DNA from: Prorocentrum cordatum
Taxonomy: Eukaryota
Reading direction: 5' to 3'
DNA: 64,000 nucleotides
NCBI GenBank assembly: GCA_963575745.1
Contig: CAUYUJ010000002.1
Span: forward strand, 1,984,001 to 2,048,000
This document shows positions 28,240 to 64,000 of the stretch, piece by piece (the first letter of the stretch is position 1; every line of letters begins with the position of its first letter). The notes under the pieces are model-generated. The model was not told where the DNA came from, made no database searches, and was given only the letters and a program-made list of their open reading frames with translations. Both the position numbers and the translations under genes were made by a program.

Positions 28240-28706
28240 TAGGAGGAGGCTGAGGAGGAGGAGGAGGAGGAGGAGCAGGAGGAGGAGGAGGAGGAAGAAG
28301 ATGAGGAGGAGGAGGAGGAAGAGGAGGAGGAGGAGGAGGCGGAGGAGGAGGAGAAGAGGAGAGAAGAGGAAGAGTAGGAGGGAGGAGGAGGATGAGGAGG
28401 AGGAAGAGGAGGAGGAGGAGCAGGAGGAGGAGGAGGAGGAGGCGGAAGTAGAGGAGGAACAGGAGGAGGAGGAGGAGGAGGAAGAGAAGAGGAAAAGGAA
28501 GGAATCAGTGAAATAATAAAAGGAGGATTTGGAGGTGGAGGAGGAAGAGGAGGAGGAAGAGAAGGAGGAGGAGGAGGAGGAGGAGGAGGAGGAACAAGGT
28601 GAGGAGGAGAAAGGAGGAGGAAGAGGAGGAGGAGGAGGTGAGAACGAGCAAGAGTAGAAAAAGAGGACAAGGATGATGATGATGCTGATGCTGATGCTGA
28701 TGCTGC

Positions 28707-28749
<43 letters not shown>
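28240..28749. repeat. (GAG)n followed by (GAT)n microsatellite
   Basis: Seen directly. The GAT tract abuts the 3' end of the LINE. Confidence 0.95.
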
Positions 28750-29506
28750 CCACGCATCCAAGAAGGTCTGGAGCTCCCCGCTCGATACAGCCTCCCGAGG
28801 CCATGGCCTTTCCCTCTGGCGCTGCGGACGCAAGGCCTGACCCGTGCCCAAGGCACACTCGCAGACTCGCCTGAAAGCCTTGAGGCCGCCGACCGCCCCA
28901 GCCAAAGGCAGGCGATCAGCAAAGCATCTGAGCCCTCACGGCAACTCAGCTCGCAGACAGCTCAGCGCGCCACATCAGAGCAACAGTCTCCTGGGCACCA
29001 GGCCACAGACGGAGACGACTTGCTCTGAGGTGGCCTTCGGAGGCGATCCTGACGGTCGGCCGTAGCCTACCACCACGGTTCGGCCTCCGCCTGGCGCGCA
29101 CAGAGCACAGAGCGGGCTGGAGCGCAGCAAGCTGCGCGGGCTGCCGCGCCCAAGGCGCGCCAGCAGCTACATTAAGACGGAGGCGCCGAAGGCGCCAAGC
29201 GACAAACGTTGCCCAAGAGGGCGGGAGGGAGTGAACCCTGACGTGTGCCGAGCCCCACGGGGTACAGCCTACGCCGCGGGGTCCCTCCCCCCCCAGAGGT
29301 AGCGGCTCGGCGCAGGCATTCGTGATCCTTGGACCCGCCTGCGACCCGAGCTGATCAGAATGCTGGCTCGATCGGAGGCAACCATGGCGGTGTGCGAACC
29401 TACCGCCACGGTCCAGCCTCCGACTGGCTGCACAAGCAGAGCATGCCAACACGTCTGTTCGCGTGATGGCAGACAGAGCGAGGCGGCAAGCGTGGCAAGA
29501 AAGAGC

Positions 29507-32500
29507 CTAGCCACCATCGACACGCCTGCGCATGCGCCGCAGCGGCTCAGGGTCGCCGATGCCGCCCGCCCCAGCGGGCTGCAGGCCGCGCTTCAGCCTG
29601 CTGAGCACCGCCTTCTGCCTATCGTTCTTGGGGGCCTTCGTGCACTTCGCTGCCAAGCCCGCCATCCTGCGGCTCTGCGTCCAGTAACCGCACTTCACGC
29701 AGAAGAGGTGGCTACCAGCCCGCCACAGGTCGTGGGAGCCGTGGGCGTCCAATCCCCACCAAGGCGGGAGCTGCGGCGGCGGCAGCGGCGGGGTCCCGCC
29801 ACCGGTCCCAGAAGAACCCCCCGACGACGGTGGGCTACCCCGCTGGCCGCCGCCAGGCGCGCCGCTGCCAACTCGCCCTGCACTCGCCTCGTCTCCTTCC
29901 ACCTGTGTTGGTGCCTCGCTGGCCTGACTGTGAGACAGCAGCGCCGCGCCCGCCGTGATGAGCGCCGCGGCTGCAGCGACCGATCCGCCTCTGCTCTCGG
30001 CCCCTGAGGCCCAGGAGCCCGCGAGCGCGTCGCCCCTGCCCGCGCGCCGCTGGCAGGCCCAGACCGTGTCGCCGTCGACGTCCAGCCACGTCCCGTGCCG
30101 CCCGCACGTGCGCTGCGGGCAGTCTGGGAAACTGCAGTGAGCTCGCCATCGCATCTTGCAGCCGCGCCAATCGCACCGAATTGCTCCCAGGCCTGGGCCC
30201 TCGTGCCCGTCCGCTGCCGTGAGCTCGGCGTCGCCTTCCTGCATCGCCGAACCCAGCCAGCAGAAGACCTTCTTGACGAGGCGATCCTGCCTGCGGCTCC
30301 TTTCCCGCGCGTCGTCGTCGCTGGGATGCATCTGCGCGCCCTGCACGGCGCGGGCATCGGCGCTGTGATTGCCCCGCCGCTGCCAGGCCGTGACGCGCTC
30401 CGCCTGCACGTCCGCCAGCGTGGCGTGAGCCTTCACCTTGTGGATGGTGACGCTGCCGACCCCTACGTCGTCGAGGGCCGCCCAGAACCGCGCCCAAAGC
30501 TCGCGGCAAGGCCGCTGCCACTGCAGGCACCACGCCCTGCCCGCCGCGAAGCCGTCCACGAGCAGCTTGCAGTCAGTGAAGATCCGCACAGGTGGTAGGC
30601 AGCTCTGGATGCCCTCGATGGCCGCCACCAGCTCCGCTGCCCCTGATTCTTGGGGGTACGGCCAGGGGAGCGGGCCGAAGAGGCTGACTGCCTCGCTGTC
30701 GGGTCCCATGACGACGACCGCCCAGCCGCCGCGCGCCGAGACGAGGCTGGGGTCCAGAACGCCCCCGTCCGTGAAGAGGTCGCCCGAGAGCGGCTGCCCC
30801 ACCAAGTCGGCATGGCCCTCCTTCCGCGCCTCCCTGGCGTCGGTGGGCGGTGGCAGGGTCCTTCGGTGCTCGGGTGCAAGAGCGCGGGACCAGAGCGGGT
30901 CCTCGTCTCCCTCGATGCTAGCCATACCGACGATGGTGCGAAAGGGGATGTCGCCAGGGGGGCACCGCTCGCCCGCCTCCTCGTTGGAGATCCACTCGCC
31001 GCGGCTGACCTCGGTGGCTGGGCACTGCCACGCCAGGTGCCGCGCTGCGCCGTGCGCAGGGCATCCCCTGGGGCACCAAGGAGAGGAGGCCAATGGGCGT
31101 TCCTCAAAGAACCGCCGCGCCACTGGCCAGAGACATCCGACCAGCGCGTCCTTGGCCGAGCTCATCTGCTTGGCCTTCTGCTTGCTCATGCGCTTTCGTG
31201 CCAATGTGCGCCTGATACTGGACAGGGCGCCTCCATCACGCAGGTGCTCCAGTCCTGGGTGCTTGCTCGCTGCCCGCCACAGCGCCCTCTCGTGGCCATC
31301 GGCGATGTGCTTGGCGAGCGTGGAGGCCCCCAGGGTCCGTAGGTCCAGCGGCTGCTGCTTGTCGTTGGTGAGCAGCCCTGGCAGTGTGGCGGCCCAGCCC
31401 AGGCGGTGGCAGGCTAACACGCACGCAGCAGCTGGCCCGCGTCCAGCCAACGCCTCAGGCCCGCCTCTGGCCAGCAGCGCCCTAGCCCCTGCGAGAGCGC
31501 TGCCCAGGGCCCTCAGGTCCCTGCTGTCCGAGTTGAACTGCACCGCCTTGGCCCATGCGATAATGGGCAGCGCCACGTGGTCGTACAGCGGGTCGCAGTG
31601 CAGGCGCTTGCTGAGGAGGAAACTGAGGCTGAGGCTCTTGCCTGGGCCGTGCCCATGGTGGACGGCGTTGACCTGGCTCCTCCACTTGTTGAGCTGCGAC
31701 GTCGGCCAACCCACCACACTCAGCCCATAGCGAGTGGCAGGCCGCAGACCAGTGTTCGCCACTCGAGCTGCTGCTGGGGTCTCCTGCGAGCGGATGGCGC
31801 GCAACCTCTGCAACTGGGATGCCGCCTTCGTGTGCCGCTTCTCGAGGACCACGAACGCTTGGCCGTCGAGGCAGTAGTCGACCCCCAGGTTCTTGACCGA
31901 GCCGGCGATGGGAAAGGCGATGCCTCCCATTAGCTTGGCGACCAGTGATGCCAGCTCTGGCGAGCTGGCCAGCAGCTCGCTCTTTGCTGCTGAGACCTTG
32001 CAGCCTAGGGCCTCCAGCTGTGAGATGACCGCCTTCGTCGCCTGGGCCACATAGGCTGCGACCTGTGCCATCGGTCCGTGGCACCCGACGCAGCAGTCGT
32101 CGAACATGATGGCGAGGGTGACTCTGGGCTCGAGCGCCCGCCACAGCCGCGCATGCTCGTCCGCGAGCACCAACAGGCCGCACTTGAGGAGCCGACCCGC
32201 ATGCGATCACCCCGCGATGAGTCCCGCATCCAGCAGGTAGGCCTCGGATACGCTACCGTCAAGCATGAAGCGGCGCTCCCCCGCGTACAGGGCGAGGGCC
32301 ATACCCAGCAGGCCCCGAGGGTAGCCAGCCAGGACGCCTCGGCCCTGGATGATGGCCAGGTCCACGAGCTCGTAGGCCTTCCATAGGTCGATGAGTGCCG
32401 CTGCTGCTCCTTCTCCGCGTGCGTGCGTGGCTTCTGCGCGCAGGGCCTGCCACCAGACTGCCTCTTCGGCCGCTCGGCCGCGCCCCCCCCAGAAGGCGCC

Positions 32501-35500
32501 TGCGACGCCAGGGTCAATCTGCGAGCCCCAGCGCCGCGCCACGGGCTGACGGACTCGGCTCCAAAGGCGCGGGAGCCAGCCCAGCAGCCCAATGGGCCGA
32601 AACCCGCCCTGGGGCTTCGGAAGCATGACCACGAGCGAGTCCGTTATGACGTCGGGCCAGCCGCCGATCTCCTCACACTTCATCCCGAAGTCAACGACTG
32701 CCTCCAGAAGCTCGTCGCTGAGGTCCGCGGCCTTCCGCGGGTTGAGGCGGTCGCTGCCGACGCCAGTGCCGCGCCTGAAGGTCCTGGCGGCCGCGCGCAG
32801 CTCATCGGCTGAGGGCCTGGGGAGGGCCTCGCCGCCAGGCGCGGGAGCTGCGGCCGAAACCTATCGCGGTCTCGCCTGACCCGCCAGACCTCTGTTGACC
32901 ATTGCTTCGCCACAAGCTTCACTCGGTCTGGGGCATGGGCTGGGGCCCCGTTGTACTCGTCGTCGGGGGCCCATCCCCTGGGCCCGCGCCGATAGGCGTG
33001 GAGCCCGCCTGCGCCTTCAGCCATGGAGTGGCGGATCCACTCCTTGAAGCCCTGGCCACGAATGACGGCGAAGGCTGCTCCATCGGCCTCCGCCTCGGCC
33101 CTGGCCTCAGCGGCCCAGTCGGCCAAGGGGAGCAGGCTGGGGCACTCGGCAGCCAGGGCTACCCGTGCTGCCCACTGGGCTCCGAGGGGAAGGCCCACCG
33201 TGGACGGGGGCTTGGGCGCCCTGCTGCTCGCTTGCGCTGCTCCGTCGCCGTTGCTGCTGACGTCGCCGTCGGAGCTGCAGTCGCTGCCCCCGCGCCTGCC
33301 GCCGTGGTACCGCATGAACTGCTTGACGCCCTGCAGGTAGCAGTAGTGCTCGTCGTCGGCGATGGCCCAGGCGTCGGGGTCGCTGTCCTCCAACTCGCGG
33401 ACCTCGCGCGCGTACCTGTTGCGCACGCCCTCGGAGGCCTGCCAACTGTCCTCGCACATGTCAACTGCCCGAGCCCAGCGGGCTGCCGCTCGCTCGCCAA
33501 ACGGCCGAGCCGAGCTGGCTCGAGGGGGCGGGGGTGGGATCGCGCTGATACCCTCCGCTGATGCGGCCCCCCTTCCCGCCCCCGACGCCGACGCATCGCT
33601 GACGCCTTCTCCAGTGGCCCTCGCTCTGCTGGCCTCCGCTGCCGCTGCGAGGCTCGCAAAGGAGTTAACTTGGGGCTGGGGTGGGATCGCGCTGACCCCG
33701 TCCGCAGATGCGGCTCCCAACCCAGCCCCGTCAGACTGGCCCTCTGCGACGCCGACCTGCTCGCCCTCGTCGCCATTGCCACCCTCGTACTGGCTGAGGC
33801 GCTCGTAGGCGTAGTGCGTGCAGGGGCCCATCCACTCTGCCTTGTCCTGCTGCACGTCGGGGGCGCGCAGGCGCGGCAGCCAGCCGTTGGCCAGTCGCGC
33901 CAGTGTGCGCCTGACGCCTGCATCACCCACCTCGATGGCACTCCACCCCCCCGCGTCCACTGGGCAGGATGCCAGCCTGCAAAGCACTGGAGGTAGGGGA
34001 GCGACGTCGCCTATGCCTTTCTCCGTCTCGGCATGGCCGTGGACGATGGGCGCGCCTGGGAGGGGCTTGCTGTAGTCACCCCGCTCCTCCAGCCAGCGCC
34101 TGGACTCGTGGTAGCTGTCCGCCGCCCTGCGCAGCTCCTCCTCCCAGCAGTCGTGGTCGAGAAGGCCGAGCTTCTGAAGAATGCGCACCAGCTCCTGTCT
34201 GCCTGCGCCGCCGCGACGCCAGGCAGACTCGCATACTTCCCTGGCAGTCTGCAGGCGACGCCCAAAGTTCTGGGCCAGGCCCGTCGCAATGTGCGTCGGC
34301 AGCCCTAGCATGCGAAAGATGTAAGGCACGCAATTTTCCAACCACTCGTTCTCGTCCGCGTAGTGGTCGGGGTTGCTGGGGTTGGAGACCCACCCGCGGG
34401 CACGGCGCCCGAGCACCCGCTTGTAGCGCTTGATTGCCCTGGCCTCCATCCGCCCCGCCGCCCGCTCGTCGTTGTCCAGTTGGCACTGGGCGAGCCCTGC
34501 CGAAGAAACGGCATCCGAGCCTCCGCCGACGAGCTGATGGATCTGCGTGAAATAGTCGCTCAGATGCATGAGCTTCTTGCCCTGGTAGCTGGCCTTGGGC
34601 CCCTTGATGGGGCGCGCCCTGGCCTGCGTGCCGAAGCTGAAGCTCGGCGGGCCCCCGCGGCCACGATGCAAACTGGCGTCATCGGGCGGGATCTGGTAGA
34701 TCCAGACGAGCTCGTTCTCCACTCCCTCGCATAGGGCGCGGTAGACCTCCGTCATGGCCTGCATGTCCCCCCCCCACTCCGATAGCGTCCCGCAACTCGT
34801 CGTGGTTCCACTCCTTGGCTGGCATAGGCCCATATGGCCTGTCCTTGGGAAAGGCTGCGGGGCCCTTGACGCGGAATGACTGGCCAAGGTCGCCCTGACA
34901 AGCCAAGTAGAGCTTGACCCCGATGTGGGGCCTGCACGGGTTGGCGTAGCCCTGCTCCGTCATATTGAGGCGCTCGCACCCGCTGACGAGGTCCAGCATA
35001 TCTGCACTGACGATGAACCAATCGAGCTCAGATGGCTCCTTGACGGGGGAGTGCTGGCAGGTGCCCTTGCCCGAGTCGACGACGTGGCCGCCCAGCTTGC
35101 GCAGCCAGTGCCCCGCGCGGAGGTGGAACCTGTCAGGCTCGACGTTCCAGTCCCCCGCCAGGACCCAGGGCTTGCCATTGCACTTCAGCGCGGCTCCTAC
35201 CTGCTGCAAGACGCCCTGGCTGTGCTCGCCCACGTCGTCGTTGTCCAGGTAGACCGAGCCCAGCAGGAAGCCTCCAGGCACGACGCCATTGATGTGCACG
35301 ATGGTCGCGCGGCCCTCGGCCGCGTGGCAGCTGTCCTTGCTGCCGCCCGCGCCTGGCCCGCACATGCCACGCGAGGTGCGCACGGCCACGACAGTGCCGC
35401 TGCTGACGGCGCGCTGGAGGCTTGCGCCGACCGAGCTCACCCCTGGGGTCAGCACGGCGCCCCAGCCAACCTGACGACACCACTGCTCCTGCTCCACGGC

Positions 35501-35650
35501 GCGGTAGCCGTTGAGGTGGTGCTCCTGGATGCACAGTGCGTCGCCGAGGTGCGCCTCCGCCACCGCCTGCTGTTGTGGGCCCTGCTGCTCGCCGAGGATG
35601 GTGGTGAAAGGGCCCCATCCACTGCCGTTGAGGCTCACGATGGTGAAGTG
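29507..35650 (-). pseudogene. LINE ORF2 (APE endonuclease, RT, RNase H, C-terminal zinc motifs) with frameshifts at ~34770 and ~32850 and a TGA at 32207
   Basis: Endonuclease SLNG, CIQEHH, LAGDWN, LDWFIV, RPH. RT PKPQGGFRPIGLL, IDLWKAYE, IAG*S, MFDD. RNase H FTDGG, AAEL, FTDCK, KVKAH, GNHSAD. C-terminal HLFCVKCG. Stop at 29507. Confidence 0.92.
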
Positions 35651-36863
35651 AGGGCGGCAACCCCCGCTTCCCCCTTCTGCGGATCCCCGCGGAGCGGAGT
35701 CCTTGGAGGAGCTTCTGGGCACGAAGCTTGCGCATGGCGGCGGCTGCGGCGGCCTTGCCTGCAGCGTCGCCTGCCTCCTCGCCGTTGCCCACCTCGCCCG
35801 ACACGGCCTCTGCTGCCCCCTCCTCGGTGGCCTCTTCCTCCAGGGAGTCCAAGATGACGTCGACGTCCTTCTCGTCGATCTCCTGCTCGTCGCCGCTCCC
35901 GTCACGCTCCGCCGCGGCACCTGCTGCGGCAACGCGCTGTGCCAAACGCCGCAACTCTGCGACTTGGCCGTCCCATTGCTCAGCGAAGCCAGGGGCGAGC
36001 ATGCCTGAGCACTGATTAAGAGCGGCGAGGAAAGCGGTGGCTCGCTCACCCTCGCTGAGCTGGGCGCCTGGGGACGCTGGGGCAGCCGTCCCTCGCGGCC
36101 CTTCCTCCCGCTGCTGTGCTTCACGCTCGCGGAGCTGTTGCGCCAGGAGGTTGTCGATGAGCGCCTGGAGCTCCTTCTCGCCGGCCTGACTCTGCGCATG
36201 TTTGCCCTCCAGCTCGAGCTTGTGGGCCTGTAGTTCAGCGAGCTGCTTGTCCGCCGCCGAGATCCTGCTCGCCAAGGCCGCCGTGGTGGCCTCCTGGTTC
36301 TTCTGCTTGCGCTCCAACTCACTGAGCTGGACTGATGTGGGCTTGGTTGCTGCCAGCTCGTTTTCCAACTGCTGCGCCTCCTGCCGTTTGGATTCGAGAA
36401 TGGCCTCCGTGCCGTCCACGCCCTCGATCTTCTTGATCTCACTTCGTAGCTTGCCCAATCGGCGGACACGTTCTGACTTGTCGTCAGGCTGCGACCCAAC
36501 GCCTGCCGCCCCAGCGCCACCGCCATCGACTCCTGGTCCTGCTTGGCTGCTGGTCTCCAACTTTTTGACCTTCCTCCGCAACTGGTTGAGCTCGTGGCGT
36601 TCTCTGGCGTCCAGTTGTGACATGCCACTCCACCAAGAACTCGTACCAGAGCCGCTTTCCCACCAGTCGTAGCCGCAACTCCTGCAGACATGCCGAGAGC
36701 CCCAATTCTTCTTGGCTCCGCACTGAGGGCAATCCCAGACCCTGGGCGCTGCACCGCTGCCGCCCGCGCCTGGAGCTTGGCCGCCCCGCTGTCCACGGCC
36801 ACTACTGGCTCTGCCGCCGCCACCTCGCGCGGCACCTCGAGCACCACCTCCTCGTCCTGCCAT
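35133..36863 (-). CDS. LINE ORF1-like protein: RGG-rich N terminus, RanBP2-type zinc finger, coiled coil
   Basis: MAGRGGGARG..., WDCPQCGAKKNWGSRHVCRSCG, then a long E/K/Q/L-rich heptad region. The open frame overlaps the start of ORF2, so the functional end is uncertain (~35660). Confidence 0.75.
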   Translation of the reverse strand: MAGRGGGARGAARGGGGRASSGRGQRGGQAPGAGGSGAAPRVWDCPQCGAKKNWGSRHVCRSCGYDWWESGSGTSSWWSGMSQLDARERHELNQLRRKVKKLETSSQAGPGVDGGGAGAAGVGSQPDDKSERVRRLGKLRSEIKKIEGVDGTEAILESKRQEAQQLENELAATKPTSVQLSELERKQKNQEATTAALASRISAADKQLAELQAHKLELEGKHAQSQAGEKELQALIDNLLAQQLREREAQQREEGPRGTAAPASPGAQLSEGERATAFLAALNQCSGMLAPGFAEQWDGQVAELRRLAQRVAAAGAAAERDGSGDEQEIDEKDVDVILDSLEEEATEEGAAEAVSGEVGNGEEAGDAAGKAAAAAAMRKLRAQKLLQGLRSAGIRRRGKRGLPPSLHHREPQRQWMGPFHHHPRRAAGPTTAGGGGGAPRRRTVHPGAPPQRLPRRGAGAVVSSGWLGRRADPRGELGRRKPPARRQQRHCRGRAHLAWHVRARRGRQQGQLPRGRGPRDHRAHQWRRAWRLPAGLGLPGQRRRGRAQPGRLAAGRSRAEVQWQALGPGGGLERRA

Positions 36864-37051
36864 TGGTCGAGCCCGCCGCGGCTGGGCTCCCAATCGGGCG
36901 ACTGGGGCCGGGTGTCGGTGATGTAATATGGAAAGAGCTGTGGCCCCAAGGGCCACACTGAAAGCTTGGAAGATTGTGAAACTGACCCAAGAATGGACGC
37001 GACGGCTAGAGCCAGCCTCATGAGACCAGACATCTGCCCTGATCGCGCCAC

Positions 37052-37070
37052 CTTGAGCCAAAATGGCTAC

Positions 37071-37073
<3 letters not shown>
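37052..37073 (-). other. Dinoflagellate spliced leader, perfect 22-mer
   Basis: Reverse complement reads TCCGTAGCCATTTTGGCTCAAG, matching DCCGTAGCCATTTTGGCTCAAG. Confidence 0.97.
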
Positions 37074-37162
<89 letters not shown>

Positions 37163-37165
37163 TTG
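37074..37165. repeat. (GAT)n(GAC)n microsatellite
   Basis: Seen directly; it abuts the SL. Confidence 0.95.
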
Positions 37166-37367
37166 ATGAGGAAGAGGAAAGCAAGAGGGAAACAGAGGAG
37201 GAGGAGGAGGACGGATAAGAGGGGAATGAGGAAGACGAGCAGGAGAAGAAGGGTAGGAGGGGGGTGAGGAAAAAGAGAATAAGGAGAAGGGGGGGGGCCT
37301 GAGGGAGGAGGGACAAGCAGGACCAGCGGGGGAGAGGAGGAGGAGGAGAAGGAGGAGGCGGAGGACC

Positions 37368-38045
37368 AGTGTAAACCCAAAACTCATTAACGATGTTGGA
37401 ATTATCCCTCCCTCCAAGCTTCGTCTTCATAGGCCCCTACAAGGGTTCATGTCCACTGAGGGAACTGCCTCGTTGGGAGACAACCGTTTGAAGACCCTGA
37501 AAAGTGCCAAAACACCATTTTCGGAACTCCAACGCCACGAATCAACCTGACTGTTGAGTCTTGATGATCCTGAACCGTGCCAGAACGCCATTCCTAGACC
37601 TTCTACATAACGAATCAACGTAAATTGTTGCGCCCTCACAATCCAGAGTCCTTCCTACCACCATTTCTCGTACGTTGGCCATAAGAATCCGTGAAACTCT
37701 TGCAGCTGTTGAAGACGAATGCGCGCGGCGTTAAAACGAGAATCACATGTCGGAAAAGAACCACCCTCATTCCGCGAAAATCTTGCAGCCTTTAAGACGA
37801 ATGCGCGCGGCGCTAAGGCGAGAACCACATTCTGAAAAGGAGCCGCCATCAATCCGTGAAACTCTTGCAAGTGTTATAGACAAATGTGCGCGGCGCTAGG
37901 GCGAGAGCCACATTTTGGAAATGACCCGCCCTGGCTCCGGGCAACTCTTATGAATGTTTCAAGCGAATGCGCGCGGCGCCAAAGCGAGAGCCACATTTGG
38001 AAAGCGAGAGCCACATTTGGAAGCTGTTGCCCATTTCTCACCATC
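37368..38045 (+). repeat. Dispersed repeat family G (GCGCGGCGCTAAGGCGAGAACCACAT subrepeats); inverted copy at 51790-52349, related segment at 46730-47270
   Basis: AGTGTAAACCCAA...CGATGTTG..ATTA.CCCTCCCTCCAAGCT matches the reverse complement of 52297-52349. Confidence 0.8.
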
Positions 38046-41341: not shown

Positions 41342-41740
41342 TTCCCAACCATCCTGTGGTGTTGGGTCCTCGTTTTGAAGAGACGGTGGTCCGCGTCTCC
41401 TCCTCCTCTCCTCTCCTCTCCTCTCCTCTCCTCTCCTCTCCTCTCCTCTCCTCTCCTCTCCCTCCACACACCCCTCACACGTTTCGTGGCCCCATAGGGA
41501 GCTCCACCGAAGGCCCCATGGCTGCCGTCCGCATGCTCCCGCACACCCATTTCGGCACACCCCTCACACGTTTCGTGGCCCCACAGGGAGCTCCACCGAA
41601 AGGCCCCAGTGCTGCCGTCCGCATGCGTCCCGCACACCCATTTCGGCACACCCCTCACACGTTTCGTGGCCCCATAGGGAGCTCCACCGAAGGCCCCAGT
41701 GCTGCCGTCCGCATGCGTCCCGCACACCCATATCGGCACA
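41342..41740 (-). repeat. 90-bp satellite (about 3 units) with its conserved 43-bp end, truncated by the gap
   Basis: Reverse complement of the 62214-63607 unit and end motif. Confidence 0.9.
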
Positions 41741-41840
41741 NNNNNNNNNNNNNNNNNNNNNNNNNNNNNNNNNNNNNNNNNNNNNNNNNNNNNNNNNNNN
41801 NNNNNNNNNNNNNNNNNNNNNNNNNNNNNNNNNNNNNNNN
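41741..41840. other. Assembly gap (100 N)
   Basis: Run of N. Confidence 1.
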
Positions 41841-50590: not shown

Positions 50591-52502
50591 GGTACGTTGA
50601 CCTCAACGCCAGCCACATCGTTTATTCGATGCGTATGGTGTTGCCGCTCGAGTGCCAGCCGCATCCGTGATTGGGAATGATGCTCTCGCCCGAGCTCTAG
50701 CTACATTCTCGTCTGGGATTGGTGCTGTCGCCTGCGCGCTGGCCGCATTCCTCATCATTAGGCGTGGTGCTCTCGCCTCAACGCCGGCCATTTCCCCAAG
50801 TGGGTATTGCGCTGCCGCTCGAGCACCATCCACAATCACATGCTGGGACGCTTATGGCATGCATCTTGGAGGGATTTGTCCAGGTTGTCCAGGGGGGGGT
50901 CCGGGGATTTTTTGGGAGATCCGATTTTTCTCCATCGAATATAAAATGGGCCCTTCTTGCGTGCAGGCGACAGATCCGACAGCCTGAGCCTTCGTGTTCG
51001 CGCCCCCGCCCCATACCGCCGAGAACCTACGAAAACGTATCAAAATCCCGAAAGACTCGAGCCTCGGAACTCCCGCCCCCCTCCCTGAACCTCGAACCTC
51101 GCAGCTTCGTCCCCCCCCCTCTCCGGAGCCCCCTCGTGCCCCCGCCCGCCCTCTTCGAGTGTGGGATCGACTTCAAAATTGAGTTACCCCATGCACATGA
51201 TTTCTCCGTCGCGCGTACGGGAAGTGCGTAGACCGCTCCGTAGACCTACGAACATTCTATGCACTTTTTCGTAGACTCAACGAACAAATAATTTCAGAGT
51301 AAGTCGATTCTGTAGCCGATCTCCCACTCGACCCCTTGGAGGCCAGTTGTTCACGAGCGCTGCGGCGTCGCTCAAGGTCGGGTGGCGCTCCCTGCGCCCA
51401 GACGCGCCAGACCGCGGAGCCGCCGCGGCCGCGCGGCCGGGCGGCCTGGACAGCCCGGCCTCGGCGGGAGCGGGAGCCTGCGGCGCGCAGGCGCGCGGGG
51501 AGGCGGGCCTCCAGGGATCGAGGGAGGTCCTCCTTCCTCCTCCTCCTCCTCCTCCTCCTCCTCCTCGTCCTCCTCCTCCTCCGCCTCCTCTCCTCATCCT
51601 CCCCCTCCTCCTCCTCATCATCCTCCTCCTCCCTCCCCCTCCTCCGCCTCCTGCTGCTCCTCCTCCTCCTCCTCCTCCTCTTCCTCCTCCTCCCTTCCCC
51701 CTGCTTGAAGATAATTGTTCCCTGTCGCACCCCGAAGCCAGTTTTTTGGGCGGGCCGGGCGTTTCGCCTGAGACTTCCTCACCGATTATGATTCTGAAAC
51801 TAAAAACAGTCTTCCCGTAGCGCCGCGCACAATCGTTTTAAACTTTTGCAAGAGCTTCACGGATTGAGGGCGGGTCGTTTTCAAAATATGGTTCTCGCCT
51901 TAGCGCCGCGCACATTCGTTTTCAAAATTTGAAAGAGCTTCACGGATTGAGGGCGGTTGGTTTTCAAAATGTGGTTCTCGTCTCAGCGCCGCGCACATTC
52001 GTTTGAAAAAAGCGCCAGAGTTCCACGGATTCTCATGAGCAACATACTAGAAATGGTGTTTTGGAAGGACTCAGGATTATATGGGTCCAACAGTTATGCT
52101 GGTCCGCGGTGTTGGAGTCCCCAAAACGGCGGTCTGTCACGATTTCAGATCGTGAGGACGCAGCAGTCAGGTTGATCCGTGGCGTGGAAATCCCGAGAAC
52201 AATGTGTTGGCATGCTTTAAGGTCTTCAAACGGTTGTCTTCCAACGAGGCAATTTCCTCGATGGAAATGAACCGTTGTAGGGGCTTCTAAAGAGGGAGCT
52301 TGGAGGGAGGGTTAATTGCAACATCGTTGATGGCTCTTGGGTTTACACTTGTCCTCGTCGTCCTCCTCCTCCTCTTCCTCCCCGTCCTCCTCCTCCTCCT
52401 CCTTCACTCCTCCTCCACCCTCCTCCCTCCCTCCCTCCCTCCCTCCCTCCCTCCCTCCCTCCTCCCTCCCTCTCTCTCTCTCTCTCTCTCTCTTTCTTTT
52501 TT

Positions 52503-52538
<36 letters not shown>

Positions 52539-55173
52539 TCTGTCGATCTCTCTCTCTCTCTCTCTCTCTCTCCATCCCTCCCCTTCCTCCCTCCTCGTCC
52601 CCCCCGTCCTCTCCTCCCTCCTCCTTCTGCCGCCCTCCTCCTCCGCCTCTCCTCCTCCTCTCCTCGTCACCTCCTCCTCCCCTCTCCTCCCTCCTCCCCT
52701 CCTCCCTCCCTCCCTCCCTCCTTCCCTCCCTCCCCGATGACGTCTGGGAGGGCGGATGGATGGCTGGCTGGGATCTCAAGGCGTCGTGGAGCCGCAGTGG
52801 AGACCCATGCCAAGAGACACCATGCTTGCCTCCAGGGTGCCCTGGGTTTCTTGGGTTTCGATGGTTTTGCTATGGAAAGCGTGACGTTCCCACACCAAAA
52901 ATCAATGGACGTTCTGGGGTCTCAGGGTTGGATTTCTTGCGGAAGGTTTCTTGTGGTCGGGCCCCTACTGGATCCACATCGGCCGTTGGTCAAGGATTTC
53001 GGTTGCTTTGTTCGTCATCCTGATCATCCCACCTACCTTCTCTCCCCGTTCCCTCATCATCCTCCCCCCTTCTCTTCCATCCCTCTTCCTCCTGCCCTTC
53101 CTCCTCCGCCTCTCCTCCCTCCCCACCTCTCTTCCCTGGCCCTCCTACCTTCTCCTCCTCGCCAGCTGCCCCACGCCGTTGTTCTGGTGACAACGTGGAT
53201 CCCAGAGGACTCGACACTTTCCCACGGACTAGCTTCCCGTTCTCGGTCGTTCTTTGCCAGTCCTGGGGCCCGGAGAGGGCCCCAGGAGGCCCAGAGTGGC
53301 CCAAATTGACCATCACGATCTTCTCACGACGCGAGGGACCCCCTCCTCTGGGAGGGGAAGGGACAGACGTGGGCGGCCTCGGGCCCGACGAGGTGTCGCA
53401 GCCGGCCGCCGCTGCTGGCAGAGCGGCTCGGTCGTCGCTGGCGGCGGTGCTGCGAGGAGGGGGCGCCGGGGAGCGAGGATACGATTCCGAGGGTCGAGGT
53501 GCTTGGAAGTCTTTTTGAGGACCCGGTTTATCGTATGGCAGCCGAGGATGTGCACACCTTTGAGAAAAAGAAACGCGTCATCATGACGGCTTCTTGGGAC
53601 GTCTTGGGGCGTCGAACGCCAGAGGTCCGCAGAGGCCAACGTCTGGAAGGCTCCCGAGGGCCCCCCTGAGGGCCAACAACGGCAAAGTTTTGCAGGGTTG
53701 TCGCCATTTCTGAGCCTCTGGGAGGCTTCGGACGGGCAAGGCGCGCCCAAAAGTCTCGATCCTCGAATCCCCTCTCCTCCGACCAAGTAGGCTCAAAACA
53801 AATTCCTGGATCCTCTTTGGATCCGTCCTTGTCAATTTTCATCGTGGATGAATTTTCGACGGTCCGAGCCAACACAGCCAAGCTTTGGAGGGTTGTCGCC
53901 CTTTCTCGGCCTCTGGGAGGCTTCTCGTCGCCACGGCCGGATTCCCCCCGAAGTTCTGGTCAAGCGCACTCCCGGGGAGGTCCTCGAGAGTCTGGTCGAA
54001 ATGAGGTACGAGCGAGGATCGATGATAACAACCCTCCGCGCAAGAACTTGTTCCTCGGTCTCGGTTTCCTGGGGCCTGTTTCGAGCCACTGGGCCGTCGA
54101 AAGTTTACCCGGGATGAAGCATTGGCAAGGCCGCATCTAGAGAGGATCCGGGGATTTGTTTTGAGTCGATATTGGTCATAGGAGGAGGAGATTCGAGGAT
54201 CGAGGTGTTCAATTTTGTTTTGCCCGTCCCAAGCCTCCAGAGGCCCCTGGAGGCGTCACTATATAGGTAGTTCGTTGAGCAGTGTTTGTTTGCAGGAGGT
54301 TATAATATCCGCTTCACGCTATCACTGTGCCGCTGCCAATGCAGTTCAGTCGCGCATGCCCAGCACTGCACACTGTACAGTCAAGACGCGAGCATGATTA
54401 CTAATTTGGCTTCAGGATGGACTCCGGTTTTCGCTCCGCTCCTCAGATCCAGGTGGGGATACTTATCCGTGGCCGAGGCTCGCCTTGGCCTGTGGCCCGA
54501 AAAGCCCCTTCGCTCCTTGTCCAGGTGCGCACACTTTGCGGCAGAGCCCGCCGCTGGAGTCTCTCGCTGTCGGCGCGGGGCGCCGGGTTTGTCCTTTCAC
54601 GGCAGGGTTCCTTGGGATCGGGCGTTGCATTTTTTCACCCCGGGTCTGCGCCCGGTTTCGGGCCCAGCCGCCGAAAGATGGGATCCATAGTGGTGATTTT
54701 CTCGAGACCCTATTTTTGTCGCGACCTCGGATCTCAGGGTTGGCCCAGCCCACAGCACGGTGCAGGGCAGCCCAGAGTTGTACAGTCAACCCGCGTAGCA
54801 AGGATGGACAACCTTCGCAAGGGTACGGGTACGCTTGCATCCTTGCCCCTTCGGCCCATCCTTGGCGACTTTCGCTGGCCAGCCTCGTTCGAAAAACGTT
54901 AACATGGGCCTCCAAGGCCCTCGACCTTACCGCGCAATCTTGTGATACGGATTGGCTGTAGCGGGGGTCAGCCTTGACAGGGGTCAGCCAAGCCCTTCCA
55001 GCTGATGCCCCCGGTTTGGGGGGAACTGCTGCGCGGCTGGCCCAGCTTCGTGGCGCGGCCTCTGCCGAGCCCGCTCGGCACTCATCGGGGCCAGCCGGTC
55101 CCCAGCAGATGCTCCAGAGGTATAGACAAACGACGACCTCCATCGAAGAAACAACAACGGCATAATCATAACC

Positions 55174-59936: not shown

Positions 59937-59958
59937 TCCGTAGCCATTTTGGCTCAAG
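59937..59958 (+). other. Dinoflagellate spliced leader, perfect 22-mer, upstream of a retrogene
   Basis: TCCGTAGCCATTTTGGCTCAAG. Confidence 0.97.
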
Positions 59959-60100
59959 CCATGATTAGCGACCCATTCGGCTCAGTGCATTTGGAAGTAA
60001 GCTCGACAAGGCTTGCATCCATTCGGATTTTCACGCCTGCCTGAATAGCCTTGCGGAACAAGCTGCGCTTCGGTTTTGGAGCAGTTTCCTCATCATCACC

Positions 60101-60580
60101 ATGGACAGCATTGGTGACGCTTACAGTTCCATTGGCGTCGTATCCGCATTGACATTCGGCTTCGCTGTCAGTGCGTTCGGCTCCATCGATGTCGGAGGAG
60201 GAGTGAATACAGGTCTCGTTTGGGCTGAATCTATTACCTTGGCGATGGCGTGTGGACTCAGTGCTATTGGCACAGCTTCGGTGGTTACTGTATACTACCA
60301 TATTAAAAGGTTGTCAGGGAACGACGATGATCTGTCATTGTATTTGAAGCAGACACGAGCGATCAGGAAAGTTTCGCGTTGGTGTACGTGGTCTGCGATG
60401 TTTAGCTTTTTATTTGCACTTGGGATTCACGCATTTGTGATATTGGAGCTGCCTCAAGCAATTGTTGTGGCCACTATCTTAATCGGGGCGCTCGTGACCA
60501 CAATGGTTGTGCTGTTCGTGTTAGGAAGGACATATGTACGAAATGAGCCTGTGCATGTTTGGGATCACAAAGACTCGTGA
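60101..60580 (+). CDS. Intronless putative four-transmembrane protein (159 aa), SL-bearing retrogene
   Basis: Intact ATG to TGA, non-repetitive, four hydrophobic segments, lower GC than the surroundings, 142 nt downstream of the DinoSL. Confidence 0.8.
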   Translation: MDSIGDAYSSIGVVSALTFGFAVSAFGSIDVGGGVNTGLVWAESITLAMACGLSAIGTASVVTVYYHIKRLSGNDDDLSLYLKQTRAIRKVSRWCTWSAMFSFLFALGIHAFVILELPQAIVVATILIGALVTTMVVLFVLGRTYVRNEPVHVWDHKDS

Positions 60581-62213
60581 CAGTCGCACGCGAGGAGTCC
60601 ATGCCATCATGGGCGCAAAGAAAACAGATCCTGGCGAAGGACCCACCAATATGCTTCAGCACCACATATGTGAGTATCGCCTTCAGTGGAACACTTCGTG
60701 GGACCACGAAACGTGTGACGGGTGTGCCGACATAGGCTTGGGAACGCACGCGGGCCTTGCAATTGGATCTTCGATGATTCCCTATGGAGCAACGAAGCGT
60801 ATGAAACGTGTGCTGAAATTGGCCTGTGGGCGCATGCAGGCCCTGCCACTGGGGCCTTGGGTGAAGCTCCCTGCGTGACCGCGGAACGTGTGAGGGTTGT
60901 GTCGACATGGGCGGGGGGACGACGCATGCGCGCGCTACCACTGAGAAGTTTGGTAGAGCTTTGGGGCCACGAAACGTGTTAAGGGTGGGCCGACATGGTC
61001 TGGGATATCGCAGGCAACACAACCCTATGGGGGACTCGGAGGGGCTCCCCATGGAGCCACGAGACGTGTGAGGGGTGTGCCGAAGTGGCCGGGGGACCGC
61101 ATGCAATACCAATATCCTAAGCGGTTCCGGTGGATTTCTCCAATGGAGTTCTCCAATGGAGCCACGAAGCGGGTGAGGGGTATGCCGCAATGGTCGCGGC
61201 GGCCCACCCCTTGGGGGCTTCGGGGGAACTCTTTATGAGGCCACGAAACGTCTGAGAGGTGTGCCGAAATAGTCAGGGGGACCCGAGCAGCATCACTCTC
61301 TTGCGTTCTTCTGTGGAATTCCCGATGAGGCCACGAATCGTGTGAAGGGTTTGCCAACATGGGCGGGGAACCGCATGCAGACCTTGCCAGTGGGGCCTTC
61401 GGTGGAGCCCCACAATGGGGCCACGAAGCGGGTGAGAGGTATGCCGAAAGGGAGGCGTCCTTTCTTAGGGGGCTGTGCACTCGGGAAAGGGGCTTCTGCG
61501 GGTTCGCGGGGTTCGGTTCGTCTTCCTTTCGGGCTCCTCGTGCGTTTTGCTGGATTCGGCTCGCGCGCAGGCGCCCTGTTCCAAGGGTCGGGGTTATGCA
61601 CATGCGTTTCTTTTCTTCAGCGCCATTGTCCAGGACGAAAGTTTAAATTCATGCGCCTGCCGGCGGAGCCCTTGCCAGGCCGTTCCCGGCACATGTCTTT
61701 TCTTTTCTTCCGCCGCGTGCCTGCGTCTCAAGCAGGCGCGCGCCCCGGGCCGGCCCCCGCGACCCAGTCCGAGGCCGCGCCCAGTGGACGCCTTGAAAAG
61801 TTAGCCTGGCGAAGGACCCAACCATATGCAGTTGAGAGTACCGCAATTGTGAATATCTTCTTCGGTGGCGCTCCCTATGGGGCCACGAGCCGTATGAGGG
61901 GTGTGCCGAAATGCGTGGCAGTGTACACAACACGAACGAAGACGATAGGTCCGAATATGAAAGCTTGAGCGCGTGCGAGTCGGATCGCGAGCGAGTCTGA
62001 TTATGAATGAATCTGCGCGCGATTGATTCTATTCGCATGAATGCGTGCATGGATACGCCCAGTGTAAATGTATGTATACGACTGTGAACAGTTTGGGTCT
62101 GCGTGACTCTCGGTACTCGTGACTCTGAGCGTCGCCTCTGCAGGGGGCTTCCCTGGGAACCCCGACGGCAGCGCCCGCGCGCCGCGACGCCCATGTCGGC
62201 ACGCCACACACCT

Positions 62214-63398
62214 GGTGTGCGGGACGCATGCGGACGGCAGCACTGGGGCCTTCGGTGGAGCTCCCTGTGGGGCCACGAAACGTGTGAGGGGTGTGCCGAA
62301 ATGGGTGTGCGGGACGCATGCGGACGGCAGCCATGGGGCCTTCGGTGGAGCTCCCTGTGGGGCCACGAAACGTGTGAGGGGTGTGCCGAAATGGGTGTGC
62401 GGGACGCATGCGGACGGCAGCACTGGGGCCTTCGGTGGAGCTCCCTGTGGGGCCACGAAACGTGTGAGGGGTGTGCCGAAATGGGTGTGCGGGACGCATG
62501 CGGACGGCAGCCATGGGGCCTTCGGTGGAGCTCCCTATGGGGCCACGAAACGTGTGAGGGGTGTGCCGAAATGGGTGTGCGGGACGCATGCGGACGGCAG
62601 CACTGGGGCCTTCGGTGGAGCTCCCTGTGGGGCCACGAAACGTGTGAGGGGTGTGCCGAAATGGGTGTGCGGGACGCATGCGGACGGCAGCCATGGGGCC
62701 TTCGGTGGAGCTCCCTATGGGGCCACGAAACGTGTGAGGGGTGTGCCGAAATGGGTGTGCGGGACGCATGCGGACGGCACATGGGGCCTTCAACACTGGT
62801 TCTGTTCGGTGGAGCTCCCTGTGGGGCCACGAAACGTGTGAGGGGTGTGCCGAAATGGGTGTGCGGGACGCATGCGGACGGCAACACTGGGGCCTTCGGT
62901 GGAGCTCCCTGTGGGGCCACGAAACGTGTGAGGGGTGTGCCGAAATGGGTGTGCGGGACGCATGCGGACGGCAGCCATGGGGCCTTCGGTGGAGCTCCCT
63001 ATGGGGCCACGAAACGTGTGAGGGGTGTGCCGAAATGGGTGTGCGGGACGCATGCGGACGGCAGCACTGGGGCCTTCGGTGGAGCTCCCTGTGGGGCCAC
63101 GAAACGTGTGAGGGGTGTGCCAATGGGTGTGCGGGACGCATGCGGACGGCAGCCATGGGGCCTTCGGTGGAGCTCCCTATGGGGCCACGAAACGTGTGAG
63201 GGGTGTGCCGAAATGGGTGTGCGGGACGCATGCGGACGGCAGCACTGGGGCCTTCGGTGGAGCTCCCTGTGGGGCCACGAAACGTGTGAGGGGTGTGCCG
63301 AAATGGGTGTGCGGGACGCATGCGGACGGCAGCCCTCGGGCCTTCGGTGGAGCTCCCTATGGGGCCACGAAACGTGTGAGGGGTGTGCCGAAATGGGT
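62214..63398 (+). repeat. 90-bp tandem satellite (about 13 units) with a 180-bp dimeric higher-order structure; degenerate units at 60690-61920
   Basis: GGGACGCATG recurs at 62221, 62311, 62401, 62491, 62581, 62671 and 62761. CACTGG and CCATGG variants alternate. Confidence 0.95.
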
Positions 63399-63452
63399 GA
63401 TGACGATGACGATGACGACGATGACAATGACGATGGTGATGATGATAATGAC

Positions 63453-63513
<61 letters not shown>

Positions 63514-64000
63514 GGAGTAGGGAGGAGGGGGAGGAGGAGGAGAGGAGGTGGGACGCGGGGCGCTGTCTCTTCAAAACGAGGACCCAACACCACAGGATGG
63601 TTGGGAAAAAGAGCGCCAGTCGTCGCATCACCGTATGCCCCCCCCTCACCCTGCTTTCTCTGTCCCTCGCCTGCCCTTCGCTTTCGCCCCTCCCGCTCCG
63701 CCCCCCCCCTTTCCCGCGCAATTCCGCCCAGGGATCGTCGGTGGGCGCGCGTCGGCGGTCACCGGGCACACGCGCCATGCACATTAGTTACTGCTGGGGG
63801 GCAGAGAAATCACCAGGGACCGGGGACGCGGCCCTGGCGGCCTCATTCAACACAGTTCTGTGTAAAAGACGTACGATTGCTTCACTTTTCTGCCGTTTTG
63901 GCAGGGAAGAAAAACACTTCCTCGTTGCGCGTGGTTTACCGGATCCGCGCACCATTGCCCATGAGTAGCGCCGTGGCCACAATATCCCCGGGGGCCACAC

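Follow-up and report, generated by a model that had tools for sequence, protein, structure and literature searches.

Organization of the element and its 5′ junction

The 64,000-nt stretch of Prorocentrum cordatum DNA analysed here (the window; positions 1,984,001 to 2,048,000 of contig CAUYUJ010000002.1, assembly GCA_963575745.1) carries on its minus strand a retrotransposon with the organization of a long interspersed nuclear element (LINE), which begins with an exact DNA copy of the dinoflagellate spliced leader (SL), DinoSL. The parts of the element and the adjoining microsatellites are given below in window coordinates, in the order in which the minus strand is read apart from the domains, which follow their open reading frame (ORF). 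UTR stands for untranslated region; X1, X2 and X3 are three public DNA runs; P0001 is the sole relative from a word-based search for ORF2.

37074..37162, minus strand: (CGT)n, then (CAT)n microsatellite adjoining the 5′ end; probably target DNA or a target-site duplication (from the sequence).
37052..37073, minus strand: DinoSL DNA copy, 22/22 match; first T in common with the last CAT unit.
36864..37051, minus strand: 5′ leader (UTR) of the LINE, 188 nt (X2 contig colinear; unlike SL RNA gene introns).
35661..36863, minus strand: ORF1, 401 codons to the stop point of its relatives; N-terminal C4 zinc ribbon, then a coiled-coil-like, basic-ended protein (ATG at 36863).
29507..35680, minus strand: ORF2, read +1 to ORF1 and lacking an ATG close to its beginning; stop at 29507-29509 (ORF analysis).
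35126..35548, minus strand: probable APE-type endonuclease (EN) domain of ORF2 (Pfam Exo_endo_phos).
31967..32620, minus strand: reverse transcriptase (RT) domain of ORF2, cut by a TGA at 32207-32209 near the conserved palm motifs (RVT_1 and alignment with P0001).
30335..30778, minus strand: RNase H domain of ORF2 (Pfam RNase_H, 33.6 bits, above the cut-off of 25.8; E 5.1e-8).
29576..29749, minus strand: C-terminal cysteine-rich motif of ORF2 (aligns with P0001 residues 1157-1209, E 0.002; no Pfam name).
28750..29506, minus strand: 3′ UTR, 757 nt, last unique bases ...GGATGCGTGG (covered by contigs of runs X1-X3).
28672..28749, minus strand: (ATC)14(AGC)2(ATCAGC)3(ATC)4, the microsatellite tail of the element, the remaining half of the (CAT)n target, or both (from the sequence).

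Along the minus strand, (CGT)n passes into (CAT)n (37162-37074), which abuts the leader with no gap. The leader, TCCGTAGCCATTTTGGCTCAAG at 37052-37073, agrees with DinoSL at 22 of 22 positions (0 mismatches). By chance the 22-mer is expected 0 times (100 shuffles of the 64-kb window); two exact copies are observed, 22.9 kb apart and on opposite strands. As the first T of the 22-mer is equally the last base of the final CAT unit, only a 21-nt core is unambiguous. The leader is followed directly by GT (AAG|GTGGCG). It stands singly and in full at the 5′ end of the LINE, without the stacked relict that marks the 5′-end class 'leader + relict' (a leader, then the relict CCATTTTGGCTCAAG). The initial annotation, drawn from the sequence alone, had described a perfect DinoSL at the start of the LINE, the order (CAT)n, SL, ~190-nt leader, ORF1, ORF2 and 3′ UTR, and a GT behind the SL; the start, the layout, its coordinates and the GT are all as described, with the leader region measuring 188 nt.

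A contig of run X2 follows the window colinearly from ORF1 as far as 37038, which leaves 14 nt to the leader; it shows 17 differences over 1186 nt. Judged from this contig, the 188-nt 5′ UTR region is part of the element. In the predicted fold of the RNA comprising leader and 5′ UTR (36864-37073, minus strand), the 3′ half of the leader forms a long hairpin with the 5′ UTR (minimum free energy −83.1 kcal/mol, z = −2.24; 5 of 200 shuffles are equally stable).

The sequence upstream of the leader (37074-37365) is 82% pyrimidine and free of AG for 232 nt, from an AG at 37300 to the AG inside the leader (37068-37067, the next one at 37068). The terminal AG of the leader lies at 37053-37052. Since the AG-free pyrimidine tract ends at the internal AG, the internal AG is at least as likely a splice acceptor as the terminal one. 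Its use would yield a full leader followed by a 15-nt relict, and the LINE copy has none.

Insertion into a microsatellite within a CT-rich tract

Outside the microsatellites, the element is framed by two further features.

37163..37365, minus strand: CT-rich low-complexity tract upstream, the tail of a high-copy repeat (37336-38007) (from the sequence).
28250..28671, minus strand: CT-rich low-complexity tract downstream, continuing the tract split by the insertion (from the sequence).

The repeat at 37336-38007 (minus strand) recurs in inverted orientation at 51820-52381 (plus strand), and the two copies are 76-80% alike. Both end in ...GGGTTTACAC, followed by CT-rich low-complexity sequence. 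At the second copy, which has no LINE, the CT-rich tract is unbroken (52381-52720). At the first copy, (CGT)n(CAT)n, the LINE with its leader and (ATC)n stand between two parts of the tract. The leader is the first sequence between the (CAT)n and (ATC)n flanks in a single CT-rich tract, and it is therefore most simply part of the inserted cDNA. The repeat is itself a very abundant element, with a depth in the public runs that exceeds the LINE's by a factor of ten to several hundred, depending on bin and run.

The leader is followed by sequence unlike SL RNA introns

The GT behind the leader had led the initial annotation to allow for a role as an SL RNA donor gene. For comparison, metagenome contigs were scanned for the 21-nt leader core, which gave 126 loci with 132 distinct sites, namely 28 SL RNA genes and 104 non-gene sites. 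The introns of the 28 environmental SL RNA genes follow one pattern, GTA[AC]A...GCAGGCCTTTTT (e.g. L026, L029, L035, L064, L108 and L111). A profile of these genes (n=28) matches the LINE only at positions 1-23, that is, the leader with GT, and a profile of their introns alone has no match in the LINE 5′ UTR. The leader region of the LINE is identical to the SL intron consensus, which comes from other dinoflagellates, at 10 of 42 positions, and the T-run typical of the end of an SL RNA gene intron is absent behind the leader of the LINE. In addition, no Rfam family is detected in the 64-kb window, which contains no 5S rRNA and no tandem leader array. The 3′ flank of the LINE consists of (ATC)n and CT-rich sequence only, with no remainder of a leader and no SL intron.

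The first base of the leader is A in 28/28 SL RNA genes; among the non-gene copies it is T at 49 sites and A at 43. Among the 104 non-gene sites, 8 have GT behind the leader, a share close to the 1 in 16 that equal base frequencies would give, and three of these eight look like cut or variant SL genes. A donor role is thus not supported by the intron identity, the missing T-run or the intron profile. SL gene introns differ between taxa, and the sequence behind the leader starts with GU or GC (PMC6616646). As the comparison genes come from other dinoflagellates and introns vary in this way, the rejection is strong but not absolute.

Coding capacity and state of the copy

The ORF1 frame of the window extends to 35136, because TTG (35660-35658) sits where three relatives end. 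These three proteins from public protein sets, one 99% and two 80% identical, begin at residue 81 of the window ORF1 and end in ...RRRGKRG. The protein P0005 begins at the same MAGRGGG/ATG as the window ORF1, with 78 of 81 residues identical; since it starts at the ORF1 ATG, it carries no information on the 5′ end. P0005 is a EukProt record, presumably from a transcriptome, labelled as a Pyramimonas strain (a green alga), so contamination, a mislabel or a shared element is possible. ORF1 has no Pfam family at E≤0.01, a methyltransferase domain included, and its residues 1-81 give weak zinc-ribbon matches only.

In ORF2, Exo_endo_phos is matched at profile positions 31-161 of 225 (E 3.9e-5, 24.0 bits), just under the cut-off of 24.5. 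RVT_1 is matched at profile positions 2-193 of 205 when the stop is read as X (E 0.0082, 16.3 bits against a cut-off of 29.6), and the two halves of the RT on either side of the TGA are colinear with P0001 (BLASTP E 1e-25 and 6e-37). Searches of PDB sequences with the EN part and with the RT/RNase H part gave 0 matches. An exhaustive HMMER search finds 1451 relatives at E≤0.001, of which 490 reach E≤1e-10. Among 20 long relatives scanned of the 150 listed, RVT_1 (E≤0.001) is present in 16, RNase_H in 11 and Exo_endo_phos in five, in all five N-terminal of the RT, and the domain order in these proteins is EN-RT-RNase H. Blastn and tblastn of the element against the rest of the window give no further copy, so the element has no terminal repeats of the long terminal repeat (LTR) kind. 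Taken together, the domain matches support its assignment as a non-LTR retrotransposon (LINE) with a separate ORF1 and an ORF2 of probable EN-RT-RNase H type. In accordance with the initial annotation, the LINE identity is borne out by RNase_H above its cut-off, EN near its cut-off, the colinearity of the RT with P0001 and the domains of the relatives. About 600 codons between EN and RT (32861-34679, minus strand) have no Pfam match at E≤0.01; as a linker within a LINE ORF2, this stretch seems long.

Although full-length, the copy is not intact. The description 'full-length' given initially holds in that every part is present; it does not hold for the reading frames, as ORF2 is broken at three places and ORF1 overruns the stop of its relatives. 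The frame of ORF2 changes within 34680-34959 and within 32683-32860, and the in-frame TGA at 32207-32209 interrupts the RT. Two differences in the run contigs fall within these frame-break zones. Behind 32838, X1 and X2 show an extra base at full depth, in a place that X3 leaves uncovered. At 34767, within a run of eight C, a single X3 contig lacks one base; the depth of X2 supports the window sequence here, and X1 leaves the position uncovered. When a script makes both changes, 37066-32210 becomes one frame of 1619 codons, and the mended frame runs 899 further codons past the TGA; the co-occurrence of the two differences in one relative is an assumption.

Contigs of the three public DNA runs cover 28600-37038. 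Summed over the contig pieces listed, they differ from the window at 130 of 6314 nt (X1), 70 of 4217 nt (X2) and 95 of 5152 nt (X3), and several contigs are found at some places of the LINE. Judged from these contigs, copies of the LINE diverged by 1.7-2.1% appear to exist elsewhere. The P0005 record, the ORF1 relatives and the run contigs together indicate that the LINE family exists elsewhere and is probably expressed. In RNA run X19, 28600-37700 is matched by only eight 31-nt low-complexity pieces at two places, which is no evidence of expression. No ORF1 relatives are found in viral, metagenome and prokaryote contigs, and a 24-nt piece of the 5′ UTR has no match in prokaryote contigs. A protein search with the translated 5′ UTR, aimed at gene calls that read through the leader, returns P0005 only.

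Other features of the window

The second exact DinoSL, at 59937-59958 (plus strand), is followed by 13 nt, a degenerate relict-like stretch CCCATTCGGCTCAG and a 159-aa ORF (60101-60580). The ORF resembles a small membrane protein, and the region 59937-60580 (plus strand) looks like an ordinary leader-tagged retrocopy. The 53 long ORFs in the rest of the window have low-complexity Pfam matches only, and the neighbours are therefore uninformative on read-through transcription. A tandem array of about 14 copies of a 90-nt unit occupies 62071-63552. At 41600-41740, an inverted stretch of 141 nt is 96-98% identical to this 90-nt array and ends exactly at a 100-N scaffold gap (41741-41840).

Leader copies in metagenome contigs

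At 10 of the 104 non-gene leader sites the leader adjoins a microsatellite of at least 12 nt, compared with 329 of 67400 control positions (0.49%) taken from the same metagenome loci (binomial p 1.3e-10). None of the 28 SL RNA genes adjoins a microsatellite. This microsatellite adjacency of non-gene leader copies is new. Two of the 10 sites, L054 and L112, have the arrangement (CAT)n|leader; L114, outside the 10, has an imperfect CAT/CAG tract before the leader. The excess suggests that leader-tagged retrocopies in general are linked to microsatellite targets, as the LINE is. Stacked leader relicts are likewise found at 10 of the 104 non-gene sites.

A tblastn search of the 126 leader loci with pieces of the element, P0001 and all relatives of at least 400 aa gives 0 matches. 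Among 97 ORFs behind the leader loci, Pfam finds one Exo_endo_phos, in L002; we reject it as a LINE, since this separate 399-aa ORF, on an AT-rich contig, is followed by no RT. With a GC content below 0.40, 23 leader loci (L002, L003, L017, L018, L043, L047, L061-L063 and others) lie on AT-rich contigs of up to 118 kb. In these contigs exact DinoSL copies stand directly before ORFs, usually after ...TTTTA; among these ORFs are a DNA polymerase beta-like gene, a RecQ-like helicase and DUF4116 repeat proteins.

Origin of the leader

We consider it fairly probable that the RNA template of this LINE bore a leader added by trans-splicing and that target-primed reverse transcription copied it all the way to its 5′ end. 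In such a process, the template RNA would begin with the 22-nt leader, like the nuclear mRNAs of dinoflagellates, and the element would insert into a (CAT)n microsatellite within a CT-rich tract. The (AUC)n 3′ tail would pair with the nicked (GAT)n strand, and the orientation would thereby be fixed. Target-primed reverse transcription would then run to the end of the RNA, so that the leader would become the first bases of the DNA copy. Both the trans-splicing origin of the leader and the priming by pairing of tail and target are what we infer from the arrangement of the sequence. An SL trans-spliced RNA had been proposed in the initial annotation as well; the LINE and the leader between its repeat flanks stand, and the attached caveat of a donor gene is not supported.

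Several observations weigh against this explanation. No 5′ end of a second copy was obtained from the window or from viral, metagenome and prokaryote contigs. The comparison with contigs of the runs, made for 28600-37700, reached 37038, and 37062-37179, with the junction, was set aside as repeat. At a divergence of ~2%, 22 nt stay unchanged ~64% of the time, so the perfect 22-mer says little about renewal of the leader. As the element entered a microsatellite, a target-site duplication is not delimitable. Finally, no LINE ORF2 is found downstream of the 126 metagenome DinoSL loci, of whose 104 non-gene sites just 28 have at least 1500 nt of downstream sequence.

The main rival, which we judge unlikely, is that the leader is a heritable part of the 5′ UTR, acquired once by trans-splicing, and that later RNAs start at the leader in the DNA, for example with its T-rich core as core promoter. 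DinoSL relicts have been proposed to hold a promoter-like TTT(G) motif, and a promoter role predicts single-leader transcripts with no stack (PMC5585692, PMC6050394), which matches the LINE. This would, however, require transcripts that begin with the first leader base. Moreover, the stacked relicts at 10/104 metagenome sites point to re-expressed retrocopies often being trans-spliced again.

Other LINEs are known to switch templates at 5′ ends. The leader could belong to a 5′ chimera, formed when the reverse transcriptase, at the end of an uncapped LINE RNA, moved over to an SL RNA or to another mRNA at its 5′ end. In favour of this, RNAs with the leader are plentiful in dinoflagellate cells. 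However, the join lies exactly at the exon end (AAG|G) with no SL RNA intron-like sequence behind it, and an independent contig has 5′ UTR and ORF1 in colinear arrangement up to 14 nt from the leader; a chimera is therefore very improbable.

We give equally little credence to chance or artefact, that is, to a LINE that landed beside an older leader relict or to an assembly that joined two repeats at the microsatellite. The junction does lie in repeats, where assemblies fail, and the window does contain the 100-N gap at 41741-41840. With two leader copies per 64 kb, however, base-exact adjacency by chance is expected at ~3 in 100,000 per position. The possibility that leader and GT are a working SL RNA donor gene ahead of the LINE, or that the LINE targets SL RNA genes as SLACS, CZAR and CRE do, is extremely improbable: the GT fits the GU or GC with which the downstream sequence of SL genes starts (PMC6616646), but intron profile, identity, T-run, array and 5S rRNA all fail to support it, the 3′ flank has neither leader remainder nor intron, and the endonuclease is probably APE-type.

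To return to the trans-spliced template RNA, a broader joint reading is possible, of which we are doubtful. LINEs of the P. cordatum genome would be promoterless, and host trans-splicing would set their 5′ ends. Insertion in one orientation into pyrimidine-rich microsatellites would leave an AG-free tract, and read-through RNA would be re-spliced at the leader AG. The same machinery, and not LTR elements, would make the thousands of leader-tagged retrogenes of dinoflagellates.

Comparison with known systems and significance

DinoSL-relict retrocopies were reportedly described by Slamovits & Keeling in 2008 as 'recycled' processed cDNAs. Like these, the LINE has a DNA-encoded 22-nt leader directly at the 5′ end of the copied unit; unlike the retrocopies of host genes, here the retrotransposon itself is the retrocopy. 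Dinoflagellate nuclear mRNAs receive the leader by trans-splicing, and DNA-encoded DinoSL relicts are an accepted mark of retroposed mRNAs, read as proof that the RNA copied was mature and trans-spliced (the 2025 survey PMC12014239, PMC5585692, PMC6050394). Leader relicts occur in more than a fifth of the genes of two Symbiodinium genomes studied (PMC6050394, PMC11453091). According to a 2018 review, the copying retroelement is unknown, with Ty1/copia LTR elements favoured (PMC6050394). Song et al. (2017) found 'RNA-dependent DNA replication' enriched among leader-tagged genes (PMC5585692), and leader-tagged reverse-transcriptase copies are therefore probably present in their data.

The LINE resembles the Symbiodinium LINEs, including SymbioLINE-Dnmt (de Mendoza et al. 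2018, PMC5890265), in having an ORF1 and an ORF2 with a candidate Exo_endo_phos domain, RVT_1 and RNase_H in the same order. In Symbiodinium LINEs both UTRs are conserved and a poly(A) tail is absent (PMC5890265). Unlike that of SymbioLINE-Dnmt, ORF1 here encodes a zinc ribbon and a coiled-coil-like protein; the likeness drawn here is one of architecture. The terms 'spliced leader', 'splice leader' and 'DinoSL' occur 0 times in the main text of PMC5890265. In the passages of the literature covered by the search, we find no statement that dinoflagellate LINEs begin with the leader.

The trypanosomatid elements L1Tc and ingi, with the internal Pr77 promoter, are reported to yield unspliced transcripts from it (PMC1874656, PMC8190864). 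Like them, the LINE resides in a host that trans-splices its mRNAs; unlike in them, the leader forms its first bases.

SLACS, CZAR and CRE of trypanosomatids insert into SL RNA genes and have a restriction-like endonuclease. The present LINE is likewise a non-LTR element physically tied to a leader sequence, but its flanks are microsatellite, with (CAT)n on the 5′ side and (ATC)n with CT-rich sequence on the 3′ side, and its endonuclease is probably APE-type.

If its leader was gained by trans-splicing, the leader-headed LINE shows LINE RNA entering the same processing route as host mRNA and LINE reverse transcription reaching the very 5′ end. This would be a LINE strategy opposite to that reported for trypanosomatid L1Tc, with its internal promoter and unspliced transcripts. 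The leader-carrying LINE insertion sits in a microsatellite, and the same signature is found at leader-tagged retrocopies in environmental contigs. The retrogene machinery of dinoflagellates thereby becomes testable, through comparison of the flanks and tails of retrogenes with those of LINE families.

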